From IMG/VR virus record IMGVR_UViG_3300029188_000076, positions 1-35,061 of that record: DNA of 35,061 nt. One strand, given 5' to 3'. The notes under the pieces were generated by a model. It was given only the letters and a program-made list of their open reading frames with translations. It had not been told where the DNA came from and did not search any database. This document shows positions 2,374-11,291 of this stretch, piece by piece; within the stretch, counting starts at the first letter, position 1; each line of letters opens with the position of its first letter. This DNA comes from a virus. A program made the position numbers and the translations under genes.

Positions 2374-2396
2374 ACGGCAGACAAACGGCAAAAATT
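2374..2396 (+). repeat. CGGCAGA / CGGCAAAAATT motifs (second set of candidate arm-type sites)
   Basis: acggcagacaaacggcaaaaatt. The exact 12-mer copy abuts the integrase stop codon. Confidence 0.4.
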
Positions 2397-3466
2397 CATT
2401 TGTACATGGTTTCTATATATTGGTCTGCTTCTTTGCGAATATCATCTGTATAATGAATATAGGTAGCTGCTACGGTAGCGACATTATCCCCTAAAACAGC
2501 CGCAACAAGATTAATATCCTTTGATTTTGATAAAAGCATGGTGGCAAAGGTGTGTCGCAGGGTATGAACGGAAATTCCCTGTTTTAATTTACGCAGCTGC
2601 CTATTCATGAGAGCATGTGTACTTGGTGTTGTCGGGATAACGCGCCCGTCAATAGCTACAGGGGTATTCAGTTTCCACGTATTTAATCTGGCTGCCAATT
2701 TCGTATTCATATGTATGGTTCGGTTTCCGTTTCGTGATTTTACGGCTTTAAATCCCCGTTTTTCGGGAGATATCCAGTTATACTGTTTATCTATGGTGAT
2801 TGTTTGTCTGGTGAAATTGATACTGTTCCATGTCAATCCGGCTATTTCTCCATATCTCATGCCGGTATTAAGAGCAATGAAAGCGATCATGTAAAAAATG
2901 GATGTATCACTTAATGCGTCAAGCAGTTGCAATGATTCTTTTTCTGTCAATGCTTTTATTCTCCGGATGGTTTTATCTTTTGCTTGTGTGACACTGTCTG
3001 CCGGATTCGCTGTAATAATTTTATACGGATTGATGGCATAGTTAAAGATGGCACGAATCTGGGCGAAACGATTCTTTCTTGTGCCTTCGCTGAATCGTCC
3101 CATATCTTGATAGACATTGATCACATCTCCGGCGGTGATCTCCCGTATTTGTTTATTGCTCAGTGTAGGAATGCTGCGGAGCATAAAGAAATAATTCCTT
3201 TTGGTGCTATATTCTAAAGAGGATCCTTTATCCCGCAAGTATATATTCTGTGTGAAACTTTTAAAGGTAATATCCGCAAGTTCTGGATCTGCTCCGCAGG
3301 CGGCATCTTCTTTTGCGGCAGCTAATAATTTATCTTGGTATTGTTTGGCTTCCCGCAAGGTTTTAAATCCTTGTTTGGTTTTCTGCTTCCATTTACTGTT
3401 CACTTTGTATGACAGAATAAGGCAAATACTGCCGTTCTTCTCACGCGTCGAAAATGAATATTCCAT
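2396..3466 (-). CDS. int: Tyrosine recombinase / phage integrase with N-terminal arm-binding (AP2-like) domain
   Basis: 356 aa. Motifs are NTGMRYGEIAGLTW (Arg), HTLRHTFATMLL (H-x-x-R) and VAATYIHY (catalytic Tyr). The N-terminus has the pattern SWKQKTKQGFKTLREAKQY. Confidence 0.93.
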   Translation of the reverse strand: MEYSFSTREKNGSICLILSYKVNSKWKQKTKQGFKTLREAKQYQDKLLAAAKEDAACGADPELADITFKSFTQNIYLRDKGSSLEYSTKRNYFFMLRSIPTLSNKQIREITAGDVINVYQDMGRFSEGTRKNRFAQIRAIFNYAINPYKIITANPADSVTQAKDKTIRRIKALTEKESLQLLDALSDTSIFYMIAFIALNTGMRYGEIAGLTWNSINFTRQTITIDKQYNWISPEKRGFKAVKSRNGNRTIHMNTKLAARLNTWKLNTPVAIDGRVIPTTPSTHALMNRQLRKLKQGISVHTLRHTFATMLLSKSKDINLVAAVLGDNVATVAATYIHYTDDIRKEADQYIETMYK

Positions 3467-3484
3467 AATAAAAATCAGCTCCTT

Positions 3485-3513
3485 TTCTGAAACAGGGCTG
3501 ATTGTGCTATAAT
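3485..3513 (+). promoter_or_regulatory. Extended -10 promoter (TGcTATAAT 3505-3513, weak -35 ttctga 3485-3490), divergent from int
   Basis: Exact TGnTATAAT. It points into 230 nt with no plausible ORF. Confidence 0.4.
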
Positions 3514-3519
3514 ATATGC

Positions 3520-3686
3520 GTAACCAGCCTGTGGTAGGGTTGTTACAATTGCCGGAAGGATACTCTCTATCGTTCCGGTTCCCGTCGTCATATTTGCGGT
3601 ATGGCGGCGGGATTTTATATTGAATAAAAAATAGGGATGGTATCTATAACGAAACCATCCCCGCAAAACGGAAACCCGTTTTTTGT
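3520..3686 (+). ncRNA. Candidate structured small RNA between int and dinD
   Basis: Four consecutive hairpins: 3520-3546, CCGGAA/TTCCGG 3552-3578, a 13-bp stem at 3580-3612 with two G-U pairs possible only on the + strand, and GGGATGGT/ACCATCCC 3634-3661. These are followed by AAAACGG-aaac-CCGTTTT plus extra Ts (3665-3684). Confidence 0.3.
3622..3662 (-). terminator. Rho-independent terminator of the dinD-like gene
   Basis: On the minus strand, GGGGATGGT...ACCATCCC is followed by TATTTTTTATT. It lies about 80 nt downstream of the stop at 3744. Confidence 0.65.
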
Positions 3687-3743
3687 TCTAGTTTCATTAT
3701 ACCTTAGCGAGAGATAATAGGGAATTACAACTATATCTGAAGA

Positions 3744-4610
3744 TTACTCTAATGGATTTTTACAATTTTCCTTTTCTGATTCTGCTATCAGTTGTTTCTT
3801 TTGTTCTCCTTCAATCTGTTTGATGCTTTTTTCAGGAGTCGGCAAATCTTCCGGCATTGTACCGCCCAATTCCTTAATCGTCTTGCGAACCTTTTGTCCT
3901 ACTTGGTAATGGGTGCGATTAGCGGCATCTTTTCCCTTTATATGTTCTCTTCGTAATTTATCATCTGTCTGTGTTGCCCGGAATAGATTTGCCGCCAATT
4001 CGGTACTTTCCATATGATCAAGGATTGCCTGTCCTTTTTTTAATCCTTTCTTTTTTGCAATATCTTGGGCGCTTAATCCCCCATAAAGCCCCATATATCC
4101 ATAATTCTGGAAAACTGCATATTCCAACCCGGACCTTACACCAGCCTGTTGTGCCGCCGCTGCCAAAGATTTATTATGGGCCTTTAATTCATTCCGTATG
4201 GCTAAACGCTTTTGATCCTCGGTGAGTAAATCATAATTATCTATAATTTCCTGTTGACGGGTTTTAATCGCAAAATAAGTCTGGGCAAGTGCAATGGCTT
4301 CTTTTCGCGGATCTCCATTCATTGCAATTAAATAACAGGCATATCGTGACAGCTTGTAATTATCAATATATTTTACGCCGCCGTTAGGCATGGGAGATGT
4401 TTTGCGGTCGTTCGCAAAATGTTCTGAAGGACTATTCCCACTTATTTCACAGGCTTTTTTAGCACGTTCTATCGTATCAGAAAATTGGCGCCATTGTTTA
4501 TATTCCAAGACAGGCATCAGTTCTCGTGCTGACCAATATTCCTGATTATATTCATTAATATGTTTTATGGACTCAAAAAGGTTTTCACTAATAGATGTAA
4601 AGCTTTCCAT
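3744..4610 (-). CDS. dinD: DNA-damage-inducible protein D (DinD) homologue
   Basis: Blocks match E. coli DinD as I remember it: LSRYACYLIAMNGDP, QTYFAIKTRQQE, RNELKAHNKSL..AAQQAGV, FQNYGYMGLYGGL, KKGLKKGQAILDHMESTELAANLFRATQT and ELGGTMPEDLPTPEKSIKQ. The start is taken at the ATG (4610) 7 nt after AAAGGAG rather than the upstream GTG at 4628. Confidence 0.88.
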   Translation of the reverse strand: MESFTSISENLFESIKHINEYNQEYWSARELMPVLEYKQWRQFSDTIERAKKACEISGNSPSEHFANDRKTSPMPNGGVKYIDNYKLSRYACYLIAMNGDPRKEAIALAQTYFAIKTRQQEIIDNYDLLTEDQKRLAIRNELKAHNKSLAAAAQQAGVRSGLEYAVFQNYGYMGLYGGLSAQDIAKKKGLKKGQAILDHMESTELAANLFRATQTDDKLRREHIKGKDAANRTHYQVGQKVRKTIKELGGTMPEDLPTPEKSIKQIEGEQKKQLIAESEKENCKNPLE

Positions 4611-4641
4611 AGATGTACTCCTTTTCACTTCTTAATAAAAA

Positions 4642-4780
4642 TTACAATTTCCCTCTGATTTCAACAACTTTTCCAAGAATAGTCACCGGAAGTTCCTTAC
4701 ATTCTTTTTTATTGTATGTCTTCGGTGTGTAAACGGACGGATTCCAGCCTATCAGAGTCAAGCCGGCATCTGATTTACTG
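4642..4780 (-). pseudogene. Remnant of the 3' end of an S24 repressor gene (paralogous to 6261..6399)
   Basis: Gapless alignment to the intact repressor 3' end gives 103/139 identical nt by my hand count. It translates to SKSDAGLTLIGWNPSVYTPKTYNKKECKELPVTILGKVVEIRGKL*, versus SKSENGLTLIGWNPAVYTPMTYTKKECQEFPVSILGKVVEIRRKL*. No N-terminal part is present. Confidence 0.85.
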
Positions 4781-4782
4781 AT

Positions 4783-4950
4783 TTACTTTTCTGATTCTTC
4801 TATTAGTTGTTTTTGAACTATTTTAGCAAGTTCGCGGCGTTCTTCTTGTGTCGGTGGCGGAACATTGGGATCTAAAGGATTACACATGAAGCCTGTCATA
4901 TTTTTCATGATGTAGTCCAGATCGTCAAGTCTTGGGTCATGTTTTGGCAT
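4783..4950 (-). CDS. Small ORF (55 aa) downstream of the nuclease gene
   Basis: The ATG is preceded by gaaagaagg. It encodes MPKHDPRLDDLDYIMKNMTGFMCNPLDPNVPPPTQEERRELAKIVQKQLIEESEK. It is below the ORF-track length cutoff and its TAA is in frame with the repressor remnant. Confidence 0.45.
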   Translation of the reverse strand: MPKHDPRLDDLDYIMKNMTGFMCNPLDPNVPPPTQEERRELAKIVQKQLIEESEK

Positions 4951-4979
4951 TGGGATACCTTCTTTCTGGGTAAATACTA

Positions 4980-6242
4980 TTAGTTGAAATAATGCTTTTT
5001 AGCTCGTCTAAAACCTGCTACTTCTGCTTCTACTACAGTCAATGCATAAAATTCTTCAGGGCCACTAATTTTAGTGGCATCATATTGCTGATCAAACGGT
5101 AGATGATATATTTTTTCTTGTGTAGATTTATTTATATTGCATTTTATTATTGGGTATGGTAGAAATTTTTTATTTTCTATGAAGTGAACGCCCAATGTAT
5201 TTGCTACTCTTTTTGCGATACCAGATAATTGCGTTGATGTAATAAAAAGAGGTGTTAGAATTTTGCCAGTTAATAAAGAGTGAAATTCAGAAAAATCACC
5301 GCTCTCATTTATCTTTGATAAATAAAAATTTACTGTTGTTCCAAATAGTTGATTAATATGTTTTTCGTGAATAACCTTATGTGTATTCCAGTTTTTACAT
5401 TGAATTACAAGATAATTGTCATCTTTTTGGCAGATTAGATCAATGCCTTGATCTTTTAGCCCTTTTTGGATTCCGTTATATGTCACATCCCATCCGTCCA
5501 ATTCATAAGAATAACCTATATACCTTTCATAATCAGAGCCAATCTCTTCCCTGGTTCTCTTTCTACTCCACCATCGATCCAAAGCTAATTGATATTTCTC
5601 GGTATCGGATAAATTATTGTATTCTTTTGGCGTTAGCCAATTTTTTGCGTTATCGTCATGAGATTGATGGGATTGATTAAGAAGGATATTATCTATATCA
5701 GCAATAGAATCCTCTTCGTCTAATTCGCTTAAGTATGGAACCAATGATTCATATAGCCAGCATTTGTATTGATATTCTTTTGCTTGTTGTTTTAATATTT
5801 GCTTTTCTTTATTTATTATTCCAAGTATCTCGGCCGCTTTAAATGCGGGTCTTCGTTTTCGTATCAAATAGTCAACCAGTCGATTATCTTTTTCCAGTTT
5901 TATATCTGAAGATATTTTAGCTAAACTAGGAATATCTCTTATCTTGGAATTAAGCAACTTTTGAGTGAAGTTTATTTCTTTTTGCAGATTTTCGATTTTC
6001 TTTCTTTCCTTTATTATTAATTCATTTTGGTTAGATAAATTAGATTTAAGAAGGGACATTTTTTGTTTATTGCCCTTCATAACATTGTCTTCTTTATGCA
6101 GATTAAATAAAAGATATAAAATAACCCCAATTATAACAATATATGCCATGAAGTGTACAAGTTTGAGAGGAAGCAGATATGCAATTATACAACTCCATAC
6201 AGCTAAAGGAAATAATGTCCCGAAAAAATTATTCATGAACAT
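4980..6242 (-). CDS. Membrane-anchored coiled-coil protein with C-terminal Mrr-cat (PD-(D/E)xK) restriction-endonuclease-like domain
   Basis: Two N-terminal TM helices are followed by about 200 aa of K/E/Q/N heptads, then YERYIGYSYELDGWDV...GIDLICQKDDNYLVIQCKNW...INQLFGT and a C-terminal KIYHLPFDQQYD...EAEVAGFRRAKK motif. The gene starts 18 nt after the repressor stop (ATG 6242, or ATG 6236 with better RBS spacing) and is AT-rich. Confidence 0.75.
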   Translation of the reverse strand: MFMNNFFGTLFPLAVWSCIIAYLLPLKLVHFMAYIVIIGVILYLLFNLHKEDNVMKGNKQKMSLLKSNLSNQNELIIKERKKIENLQKEINFTQKLLNSKIRDIPSLAKISSDIKLEKDNRLVDYLIRKRRPAFKAAEILGIINKEKQILKQQAKEYQYKCWLYESLVPYLSELDEEDSIADIDNILLNQSHQSHDDNAKNWLTPKEYNNLSDTEKYQLALDRWWSRKRTREEIGSDYERYIGYSYELDGWDVTYNGIQKGLKDQGIDLICQKDDNYLVIQCKNWNTHKVIHEKHINQLFGTTVNFYLSKINESGDFSEFHSLLTGKILTPLFITSTQLSGIAKRVANTLGVHFIENKKFLPYPIIKCNINKSTQEKIYHLPFDQQYDATKISGPEEFYALTVVEAEVAGFRRAKKHYFN

Positions 6243-6260
6243 ACCTTCTATTTAACAAAA

Positions 6261-6893
6261 TCACAGTTTTCTTCTGATTTCAACCACTTTACCTAAAATG
6301 GAAACTGGAAATTCTTGGCATTCTTTTTTTGTATATGTCATTGGCGTATAAACAGCTGGATTCCATCCAATTAAAGTAAGACCGTTTTCTGATTTACTGA
6401 CTTGCTTGACTGTAGCATCATTTCCGTTGACCAAGACTACTGCTACATCACCGCTGTCTACATCTGCTTGACGGCGGACAATGACGACATCCCCATCAAG
6501 CATGTGGGGTTCCATGGATTTTCCGGCTATTTTCAGCGCAAAGTATTCGCCCATCTGGGTCATGTTTTGTGGAATTTCCTCCCAGTCTTCAATATCGGTA
6601 ATAGCTTCAATCGGAATCCCCGCTGCCACTCTGCCGAGGACAGGGATACGCACGCCTTTGGCAAGGGAAGATTGTTTATCAGTTTTATCTTCTATAAGAT
6701 CAGATTTTTCTATATGAAAAATAGTAGCAAGTTTTTCTACTGTATTCATTCTTGGATAACGGGTACCGCTTAGCCAGGAAGAAATGACGGATTTATTTAC
6801 TTGCATTCTGGTTGCTAAATCAACTTGATTCATTTGAAAGACATCCATATATCTCTTTAGATTCTTAATAAAAATTAGTCTATATTTATCCAT
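6261..6893 (-). CDS. LexA/CI-like prophage repressor (XRE HTH plus S24 self-cleaving peptidase)
   Basis: The N-terminal HTH is MNQVDLATRMQVNKSVISSWLSG. The candidate cleavage site is RVAAGIP (Ala-Gly), with catalytic Ser in AGKSMEP and Lys in ATVKQV. RBS is aaggagg. Confidence 0.92.
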   Translation of the reverse strand: MDKYRLIFIKNLKRYMDVFQMNQVDLATRMQVNKSVISSWLSGTRYPRMNTVEKLATIFHIEKSDLIEDKTDKQSSLAKGVRIPVLGRVAAGIPIEAITDIEDWEEIPQNMTQMGEYFALKIAGKSMEPHMLDGDVVIVRRQADVDSGDVAVVLVNGNDATVKQVSKSENGLTLIGWNPAVYTPMTYTKKECQEFPVSILGKVVEIRRKL

Positions 6894-6998: not shown

Positions 6999-7003
6999 AT
7001 AAT
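6975..7003 (+). promoter_or_regulatory. Early lytic promoter, perfect consensus TTGACA-17 nt-TATAAT
   Basis: TTGACA is at 6975-6980 and TATAAT at 6998-7003 with a 17-nt spacer. It lies 36 nt upstream of the cro-like ATG. Confidence 0.8.
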
Positions 7004-7038
7004 ACAGATAACGAATTGAAGAAAGGAGGGGTGACAAG

Positions 7039-7239
7039 ATGAAGGTTTCTTTACCGGCGGCAAGGGTAAATGCTAAACTGACTCAATCAGATGTAGCGAA
7101 ACGATTAAGAAAGAACAAACAGACAATCGTAAATTGGGAAAATGGCAAAACTGAAATTGATAAAGCGAATTTTGAAGCTCTTTGTCGTTTATATAATTGC
7201 AAAATGGACGATATTTTTTTACCCTCAAGGTTCACTTAA
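7039..7239 (+). CDS. Cro-like XRE-family HTH regulator (66 aa)
   Basis: The HTH is LTQSDVAKRLRKNKQTIVNWENGK, with RBS gaaaggagggg. The gene is divergent from the repressor. Confidence 0.85.
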   Translation: MKVSLPAARVNAKLTQSDVAKRLRKNKQTIVNWENGKTEIDKANFEALCRLYNCKMDDIFLPSRFT

Positions 7240-7617: not shown

Positions 7618-7913
7618 ATAAACCGTTGATTTTCACAGCGGCGCTAATGTCAGCCGTACTGGTAGCAGGTGCCGCGGTGGATGCGGAAAAAATCTGCAAC
7701 AGGCTTTTTCCGGAAACTCGAATTGTCGAGTACCGCCGGGAGGTAAGGGCAGGCGACACGCTCTGGGATATCTGTGGCGAAATAGCCACGGATAAAGAAG
7801 ACCTGCGAAAACTTGTCTGGCAGGCAAAGAAAGATAATAGGATAAAGGACGTCGGGAACCTGCAGCCGGGAACCTTAGTGATTGTAAGAGTTGAGGAGGC
7901 GCGGAATGGATGA
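7614..7913 (+). CDS. Signal-anchored LysM-domain protein
   Basis: The ATG overlaps the previous stop (ATGA) after aggaggg. The N-terminus is MNKPLIFTAALMSAVLVAGAAV, followed by the LysM pattern YRREVRAGDTLWDICGEIA...NLQPGTLVIV. Confidence 0.65.
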   Translation: MNKPLIFTAALMSAVLVAGAAVDAEKICNRLFPETRIVEYRREVRAGDTLWDICGEIATDKEDLRKLVWQAKKDNRIKDVGNLQPGTLVIVRVEEARNG

Positions 7914-8076: not shown

Positions 8077-8283
8077 ATGCACGAAATGGATAACACAGAA
8101 AAGTTTGGACAGGTAGTCAAATATTTAATCCGCAGGTATAAGGAAGAGTCGAATATTTATGCGGAGTTGGGTAAAAAAGGCGACATGATAAACGCAGCTA
8201 AAGCGAGTGTACGTTTAGAAATTTTCTGGGAAATAATTCTTTTTATTAACAAGTTGGATATCAATGAGATGAAAAATCAATGA
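8077..8283 (+). CDS. Hypothetical small protein (65-68 aa)
   Basis: ORF with RBS aaagga. The start is ATG 8077 or ATG 8086. Confidence 0.5.
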   Translation: MHEMDNTEKFGQVVKYLIRRYKEESNIYAELGKKGDMINAAKASVRLEIFWEIILFINKLDINEMKNQ

Positions 8284-10802: not shown

Positions 10803-11291
10803 ATGATTACAGCAACACTTTACGGCAGGCTTGCCAGAGATCCAGAACGAATGCAGCCGTCTAACGGAGGAGAATCGTATGTACGATTCTCCATGGCGAT
10901 AGAAACGGGTCGTAAAGATCAGGATGGAAATCGTATTGCCCAATTTATCAACATATCTGTTTTCGGAAAACAGGGTGATGTTATTCAGCAATATTTTCAA
11001 AAAGGGAATCGTATTGTCTGCCATGTGCGAAACATTGAAGCAAGAGCGTACGAGAACCAGTCAGGACAGCCGCGAGCCGCCCTGCAGGCGGTTTTGACGG
11101 GGATTGAATTTGTAGAAACAAGAGCGGACCAAGAGAAACAGGGAGAGAACGGCGGTCCTTTTGCGCGATTTGGTACACCGCAGACGCAGGCAGCTCCTGC
11201 TTACGGTACACCTATGGGATCCACTCCCTCCCCACAAGCGCTTCCGGGCATGCAGACAGAGGGGACAATTCCTGCCCCGTGGGATAGGTAA
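10803..11291 (+). CDS. ssb: Single-stranded DNA-binding protein
   Basis: The OB-fold pattern is ITATLYGRLARDPE...VRFSMAIE...FINISVFGKQGDV...KGNRIVCHV, with a Gly/Pro/Gln-rich tail. The tail ends TIPAPWDR rather than the canonical DDDIPF. Confidence 0.85.
   Translation: MITATLYGRLARDPERMQPSNGGESYVRFSMAIETGRKDQDGNRIAQFINISVFGKQGDVIQQYFQKGNRIVCHVRNIEARAYENQSGQPRAALQAVLTGIEFVETRADQEKQGENGGPFARFGTPQTQAAPAYGTPMGSTPSPQALPGMQTEGTIPAPWDR

Follow-up and report, generated by a model that had tools for sequence, protein, structure and literature searches.

A fragment of a foreign repressor gene, found at positions 4642–4782 (minus strand) of the 35,061-nucleotide stretch of phage DNA analysed here (hereafter the window), is in our reading the scar of an illegitimate, out-of-register recombination between two related temperate phages, to which we assign a probability of about 0.8. 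A preliminary description of this DNA had proposed an exchange of repressor allele and cargo at this point. Its overall conclusion was essentially right, and what is refined here is the mechanism.

The intact repressor, a 420-aa ORF, the small ORF orf55, the remnant, dinD and the integrase are all encoded on the minus strand. The intact prophage repressor, designated allele A (6261..6893, 210 aa), contains HTH_3 and Peptidase_S24 domains according to Pfam, and its last 46 codons (6261–6401) are the paralogue of the remnant; a cro-like gene (7039–7239) runs in the direction opposite to the repressor–dinD genes. Following the repressor are an AT-rich cargo gene for an Mrr-type nuclease (4980..6242; 420 aa, or 418 aa from the second ATG), orf55 (4783..4950), the remnant, consisting of 46 codons plus a TAA stop (4642–4644), and dinD (3744..4610; 288 aa from the ATG at 4610), a member of the DNA damage-inducible protein D family (NCBIfam NF008573, E=1e-116; PADLOC candidate PDC-S13). 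A tyrosine integrase (2396..3466; Pfam PF00589), whose search against GTDB genomes gave only matches of ≤36% identity, closes the lysogeny module, the cargo slot being the interval between repressor and integrase. The low GC content already ascribed to the nuclease was found again, with 0.27–0.35 across the nuclease region (4951–6300) versus about 0.40–0.44 in the flanks. No tRNA gene was present in the window. Since no minus-strand terminator-like site was detected between 6893 and 3744, that is from the repressor promoter region to the end of dinD, the repressor, the nuclease, orf55 and dinD may plausibly share one transcript in the lysogen.

Two further features were seen on the integrase side. 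Late phage genes occupy 1–2314, including an ORF (23–481) that is lysin-like by eye, and the similarity to prophage contigs L076 and L077 ends at 2314/2315, where those contigs run on into different genes; judging by this break, the window looks like a phage genome in excised or circular form, in which attP would lie between about 2143 and 2395. A hairpin element of ~45 nt (AAAATCCCGCCGCCATAC...ATATGACGACGG) is located at 3582–3628, being terminator-like on the plus strand at 3580–3612. Copies of the same element flank a 284-aa PemK-like gene as a direct repeat in contig L001 (about 7002–7048 and 8088–8134; L001 and L019 are one IMG/VR contig, UViG_3300045988_130410) and flank the PemK-like gene of L069 (9751–9801 and about 10841–10890). 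The window holds one hybrid copy and no PemK-like gene, which points to another repeat-bounded cassette gain or loss.

The remnant was recognized as a gapless partial copy of the resident repressor tail. Positions 4642–4780 match 6261–6399 at 103 of 139 nt, exactly as counted by hand in the preliminary description, and a repeat search of the window stretches the match to 4638–4793 versus 6257–6412 at 74% identity. The significance of this similarity, set beforehand as the test that could overturn the claim, was clear (blastn E=1e-22), and shuffled remnants (n=200, best ungapped match anywhere in the window on either strand) never exceeded 64/139. Chance similarity or an assembly chimera, for which nothing but the AT-rich composition speaks, is therefore a negligible prospect, also because the same junction is present on contigs from independent ENA/Logan samples. 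In translation, the two tails agree at 36 of 46 residues (36 of 45 in the earlier count), and their codons differ by 17 synonymous and 10 non-synonymous changes, distributed 11/3/22 over the three codon positions. Such mostly synonymous differences argue for the divergence of two working alleles, not for decay.

The description of the remnant as a "decayed" copy could not be maintained, given that no frameshift or internal stop interrupts it and that it has 100% amino acid identity to the C-termini of the full-length repressors of L006, L010 and L012. It is nevertheless incomplete. As previously reported, the N-terminal half is absent and a TAA (4783–4785, minus strand) is found directly upstream; this TAA is in the remnant frame and is the stop of orf55. 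The remnant is the counterpart of residues 165–210 of the intact repressor, and alignment to LexA structures shows that the catalytic Ser (GKSM) and Lys (ATVK) both precede the break, which falls at ATVK|Q, directly past the Lys. The HTH domain, both catalytic residues and the start codon are thus missing, and the 46 aa had no Pfam match. Homology to a functional gene and loss of functional parts, as expected for a gene remnant, are hence both present, and signs of neutral decay are not. Because the HTH domain and both catalytic residues are missing, a protein made from the remnant would most likely be inert. Two more details of the preliminary description were borne out: the dinD RBS follows the remnant stop in the way that the nuclease follows the intact one (31 nt from remnant stop to the dinD ATG at 4610, with RBS AAAGGAG, versus about 20 nt from intact stop to the nuclease ATG at 6242/6236), and the motif duplicated at the junction is, on the gene strand, TAAATCAG in tandem at 4785–4778 and 4777–4770. 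Additionally, an exact 16-nt repeat, TTCTTAATAAAAATTA, occurs at 4629–4644 (remnant stop and dinD leader) and at 6862–6877 (repressor N-terminus); being an A/T-only sequence, it was judged by rough estimate as likely due to chance.

Full-length repressors with the same S24/LexA-like tail as the remnant, here called B-type, are carried by L006 and L009–L018. The closest, that of L010, differs from the remnant by 4 synonymous changes and no non-synonymous one (137/141 nt and 46/46 aa identical), and amino acid identity to the C-termini of the full-length repressors in L001, L006 and L009–L018 is 95–100%. By these comparisons the remnant is the intact 3' end of a foreign B-type repressor allele, and the absence of non-synonymous change, against four synonymous ones, indicates that the truncation is either young or has had its sequence refreshed by recombination.

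The arrangement expected on the recipient side was found in L001, which matches window positions 3582–4793 at 98.0%. There, this segment is the end of a full-length B-type repressor (...ATVKQISKSDAGLTLIGWNPSVYTPRTYNKKECKKLPVTILGKVVEIRGKL and stop) abutting dinD, with a 13-nt gap from the repressor stop to the listed dinD ORF. By segment, identity is 866/867 nt for dinD, 31/31 for the 31-nt spacer and 90.1% for the remnant. The adjacency of repressor and dinD that had been postulated for an ancestor is thus present in a relative, and the window dinD together with its spacer (4611–4641) seems to keep its native context behind a repressor stop codon. L001 is best taken as a model of the recipient and not as the actual parent, since its repressor end and the remnant agree at only 90% (97% for L010). 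Among GenBank phages, only partial dinD matches were retrieved. A protein matching only the C-terminal half of dinD (residues 127–280, about 57% identity) is encoded in L033, L037, L038, L042, L053 and L056, and such proteins lie at variable distance downstream of the repressor in related loci.

On the donor side, the 420-aa protein carries an Mrr_cat nuclease domain (Pfam PF04471/PF13156) and a C-terminal "sunset" domain, matches NCBIfam NF051437 below cutoff, and has a hydrophobic N-terminus that looks membrane-spanning by reading of the sequence. A 98% identical relative (P0001) is encoded in L069/L070, where a 212-aa repressor is followed by the 418-aa nuclease, orf62, a sunset-domain ORF of 73 aa, a PemK-like gene of 284 aa and the integrase, with neither dinD nor remnant. 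Window positions 4797–6740 match L069 at 97.8% in one contiguous block, from which the S24 domain of repressor A, the nuclease and the small ORF would be one imported block, in line with the earlier proposal that a different repressor allele arrived together with the nuclease and 55-aa cassette. No relative was found when the nuclease was queried against IMG/VR, and exact-product look-up of the 420-aa ORF returned nothing because gene callers take the second ATG. The protein family itself is large, with 4451 members at E≤1e-5 out of the 8000 candidates that were scored. One member with 62% identity, P0002, is found in four contigs (L071–L074), again immediately after an HTH_3 repressor-like gene, and the sunset domain occurs alone as 73–94-aa ORFs in L069, L013 and L007 and also ends a 371-aa cargo protein in L002.

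To the left of 6740, the repressor HTH domain and cro belong to a third type. The intact repressor is hence itself a mosaic at about 6740, its S24 domain (6261–6740) being 97.8% identical to L069 and its HTH domain, operator region and cro being of another origin (nt identity with L007/L008 is about 79%, and cro is 94% identical in aa).

The small ORF proved to be composite as well. Orf55 is a 3'-truncated copy of a conserved 62/63-aa ORF (tblastn 93% to L006). The 62-aa version of L069 ends ...KQLIKAEERKNEKKTT, and the 63-aa version of L006, like that of L066, ends ...KQLIAESEKENGKNPLE. In the L006/L066 version, the final 65 nt, which comprise the tail, the stop and 11 further nt, match the end of the window dinD (3733..3797, likewise dinD 3' tail, stop and 11 nt downstream) at 97% and 90%, respectively, the L006 segment 7967–8031 corresponding to window 3797–3733. 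Within the window, the same relationship appears as a direct repeat, absent from the preliminary description, between 4774–4812 and 3759–3797 (33/39 nt; none of 500 shuffles reached this value, the maximum being 28). The dinD-like tail of orf55 (KQLIEESEK, 4786..4812) thus looks like a second, older in-frame scar of the same kind, in which a dinD tail was fused to the small ORF. Either scar, the dinD tail within orf55 or the repressor tail behind it, could have come first: the two dinD-tail repeats flank the remnant and dinD, so that both could be deleted between them, and such a deletion in a window-type genome could equally have given rise to the L006 type. No exact donor contig was found, as the orf62 tail differs in L069, and L006/L066 have the right tail without the nuclease; the small ORF with a full dinD-like tail expected in the donor ends ...ESEKENGKNPLE. 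In L006, which has no counterpart of the 179-aa gene of L075, the 20–21 nt upstream of the orf63 RBS (TTAGATTTATAGGTTGGTAA, about 7785–7805) are identical to the 3' end of that gene (about 5955–5975 in L075) and may be another 3'-end scar.

The joint was resolved by three-way alignments of the window with donor-type (L006, L066, L069) and recipient-type (L001, L009–L018) contigs. On the gene strand, the donor type reads ...GAATCAGAAAAG GAAAATGG..., the window ...GAATCAGAAAAG TAAATCAG TAAATCAGATGCC... and the recipient type ...CCACAGTAAAG CAGATCAG TAAATCAGATGCC..., with CAA instead of CAG in L009; over the pair of 8-mers (4770..4785) recipient alleles are CAGATCAG-TAAATCAG or CAAATCAG-TAAATCAG. 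Close similarity switches abruptly, being 98.0% to L001 up to 4793 and 97.8% to L069 from 4797, and the change of parent type falls within 4783–4793, with the partners in the same reading frame. The crossover lies in the orf63 tail on the donor side and at the repressor codon 46 from the end on the recipient side. The only sequence that the partners have in common there is CAGAAAAG (4793–4786), against CAGTAAAG in the recipient (7/8 nt), and it is followed by the new stop TAA (4785–4783), whose T at 4785 is in neither parent type (G in the donor, C in the recipient). The switch is therefore that of a mosaic junction, at a single point and without extended homology between the parents, and no conserved "linker" present in both partners was found at the orf55/remnant joint. 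Recombination within the repressor 3' end, as previously suggested, thus holds for the recipient breakpoint only: the donor breakpoint is in the dinD-like tail of the 62/63-aa ORF and, since this is the tail of another gene, the event would be illegitimate and out of register, and not a homologous exchange within the repressor. The exact junction pattern was not matched by any of the viral, genome or JGI metagenome contigs searched.

The following history would account for this joint. A donor with repressor A, the membrane/Mrr nuclease and the 63-aa ORF, in this order towards the integrase side, would have recombined with a recipient in which a B-type repressor was followed directly by dinD and the integrase side, the tail of the 63-aa ORF being joined to the B-type repressor 46 codons before its end, at CAGAAAAG / CAGTAAAG. 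The recombinant would have retained the donor immunity region and nuclease, together with the recipient dinD and the last 139 nt of the recipient repressor. One substitution, from GAA in the donor or CAA/CAG in the recipient to TAA, would have provided the stop of orf55, blocking an orf55–repressor-tail fusion, and might have been selected for; an 8-nt slippage duplicating TAAATCAG is an alternative source of the stop to point mutation. As a first effect, dinD would keep its native 31-nt spacer and RBS and sit in the repressor operon; as a second, the unit made of orf55 and remnant would supply homology for continued swaps of neighbouring cargo, so that crossover and nonsense change would have been followed by homology-based exchanges around the scar.

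A joint between a dinD-type tail and a repressor tail is also the expected product of a head-to-tail duplication. Accordingly, the segment comprising repressor 3' end and dinD might have been duplicated in situ by unequal crossing-over in a repressor B–dinD genome, with later replacement of the upstream repressor and of most of the first dinD by repressor A, nuclease and orf62, the replaced dinD copy leaving its tail in orf55. That in-situ duplication occurs in this phage group is indicated by the remnant of L036, nearly identical to its resident repressor. In the window, though, remnant and resident tail are 26% diverged, mostly at synonymous sites, and L069 has repressor A, nuclease and orf62 as one block. 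The fusion of orf62 to the dinD tail at AAACAACTGATA would moreover require either an origin in this lineage with later transfer to L006/L066 or two separate origins. We consider this order of events unlikely, and retain illegitimate recombination between two phages as the preferred reading.

Some integrative elements, such as phage 21 and e14 in icd and the tRNA-gene integrators, supply their target gene with a new 3' end, and the present layout, namely a gene with a replacement 3' end, inserted DNA and the displaced original 3' end, resembles theirs. A site-specific cassette integrated into the repressor 3' end, bringing a new 3' end with it, would produce just this order. Unlike those elements, the insert has no recombinase between 4794 and 6260, the interval 4783–6242 coding only for the Mrr_cat protein and the 55-aa ORF; the two copies are 74% identical with no long identical core at a constant position; and breakpoints vary among loci, with remnants of about 46, 55, 63 and 76 aa. 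In addition, the donor homology continues past the repeat, through the repressor to 6740, and the donor breakpoint is in the tail of another gene. Site-specific integration is consequently extremely improbable, and the illegitimate joint remains the explanation that we follow.

The scar is not confined to the window. The exact 55-aa product was found on 11 contigs, and the scar on at least 8 contigs read, from independent ENA/Logan samples, in contexts comprising three upstream cargos and two downstream. L076, L077, L079, L080 and L081 share the configuration of the window at 99–100% identity. L078 has repressor A, the nuclease and the orf55/remnant unit followed by Abi_2 and a PemK-like gene; L075 has another repressor with 157-aa and 179-aa genes upstream of the unit, and Abi_2, a 52-aa ORF, a PemK-like gene and the integrase downstream; L082 has a third upstream sequence, the unit and dinD. 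The shared unit (4642–4968) is 98.8% conserved, and its similarity ends precisely with the remnant stop on one side and slightly ahead of the orf55 RBS on the other. The same scar in independent samples with differing flanks argues that it is real and established in nature and that cargo has been reassorted around it on both sides. The subsequent exchanges around this 327-nt unit, like those at the B-type stop, are compatible with homologous "linker" exchange. As to the cassette boundary formerly drawn at the remnant, the remnant does mark one edge, but the cassette is not a single travelling piece, as the nuclease alone is swapped in relatives, and orf55 and remnant travel together. Spread by a homing endonuclease was discarded, as the scar persists in L075 without the nuclease and membrane-anchored Mrr_cat proteins are not known as a homing family.

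The conservation of this unit among contigs with differing flanks, the absence of disabling mutations and of amino acid changes relative to live alleles, and the frame common to orf55 and remnant could also be taken as signs of function: a 39-aa ORF from a TTG (4642–4761), or read-through of orf55, might modulate repressor dimerisation, or the remnant might act as a cis element for dinD. Recency explains the conservation, as only 4 nt differ, at sites that are also polymorphic in full-length alleles. The TTG has no Shine-Dalgarno sequence in front of it, most of the S24 fold is missing along with the catalytic Ser and Lys, and in L075/L078 the remnant is followed by Abi_2 with its own promoter-like sequence, so that it is not tied to dinD. 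A functional remnant is hence very unlikely, and we keep to the view of a recombination scar; in annotation, 4642–4782 should read as a repressor fragment, not as a gene, and orf55 as a truncated small ORF.

Beyond the scar itself, the search for relatives with other cargo at the same junction, suggested in the preliminary description, was productive: behind the stop codon of the B-type repressor, relatives carry at least 7 different sequences. Cargo families at the slot include Abi_2, T5orf172/MUG113/DUF4041, DUF4352, DUF3800, DUF6978, DUF1828/1829 and PemK-like, so that conserved flanks enclose diverse exchangeable cargo, as in a defence/moron hotspot. Judging by family names (Abi_2, PDC-S13, T5orf172, PemK-like), the cargo probably consists of accessory genes of defence type. 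A B-type repressor followed directly by Abi_2, as a parent for the Abi_2 contexts, was not found, and the remnant/Abi_2 flank pattern gave 0 matches in viral contigs.

Other repressor 3' remnants were observed at four loci (L031, ~76 aa; L036, ~55 aa; L045/L047, ~46 aa; L068, ~63 aa), that of L068 being B-type. They are independent, with start residues differing among loci, and lie downstream of a full repressor and its cargo, with more cargo before the integrase where the contig continues. L062 has two full-length S24 repressor genes in tandem (3416–4075 and 4092–4718), 17 nt apart. Repressor 3' ends, full-length or remnant, might then serve as portable homology "adapters" for cargo in this phage group, a possibility that we regard as rather doubtful. 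Many cargo genes lie right behind a B-type repressor stop, and a remnant further downstream would allow such cargo to be captured once more, so that defence-type genes would stack in the order repressor, cargo 1, remnant, cargo 2, integrase, with reassortment on both sides. This reading would fit the five independent remnant junctions and the four combinations of flanks seen around one scar.

The model of phage mosaicism by illegitimate recombination is reportedly that of Hendrix and Juhala. In it, mosaic junctions arise by illegitimate (non-homologous) recombination followed by selection for function (summarised in PMC3029335). The joint described here agrees with this model in its abrupt switch of similarity, in having microhomology only, in lying near gene ends and in leaving the surviving genes intact. 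It differs in being placed inside a gene, with a 46-codon remnant left behind, and goes beyond the model in that the configurations of both sides are available and that a new stop lies exactly at the in-frame joint. A small, near-identical case is gene 68 of the Cluster I mycobacteriophage Island3, an inserted gene that ends in 18 residues repeated from the C-terminus of gene 67 upstream of it, over about 50 bp (PMC3029335). In both, a duplicated gene 3' end flanks inserted cargo, and the orf55/orf63 tail copying the dinD tail (17–18 codons, 65 nt) is nearly the same situation; unlike in Island3, the remnant is longer (139 nt), is cut off from the cargo ORF by a stop and belongs to a different allele, at 74% identity. 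The repressor-tail scar is ordinary phage mosaic evolution, clearly resolved, and not a new kind of element.

The slot also recalls the anti-phage hotspots of prophages and satellites described for P2/P4 (PMC9122126, PMC13586616), as it has a fixed position between repressor and integrase and diverse cargo, much of it of defence type by family (dinD/PDC-S13, Abi_2, T5orf172/DUF4041, PemK-like, Mrr-type nuclease, DUF3800). Unlike P2/P4, it belongs to another phage group, that of gut metagenome phages, and to another slot, and its defence role is predicted. Homologous and illegitimate recombination are listed in hotspot reviews as open alternatives for cargo exchange (PMC13586616); at this locus an illegitimate join seems to have been followed by apparent homology-based reshuffling around the scar. 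The locus thus offers a fully resolved example, at base level, of a temperate phage gaining accessory, probably defence, genes, and it provides a lead on repressor tails as adapters for cargo stacking which, if true, would represent a concrete mechanism for the growth and shuffling of prophage defence hotspots.
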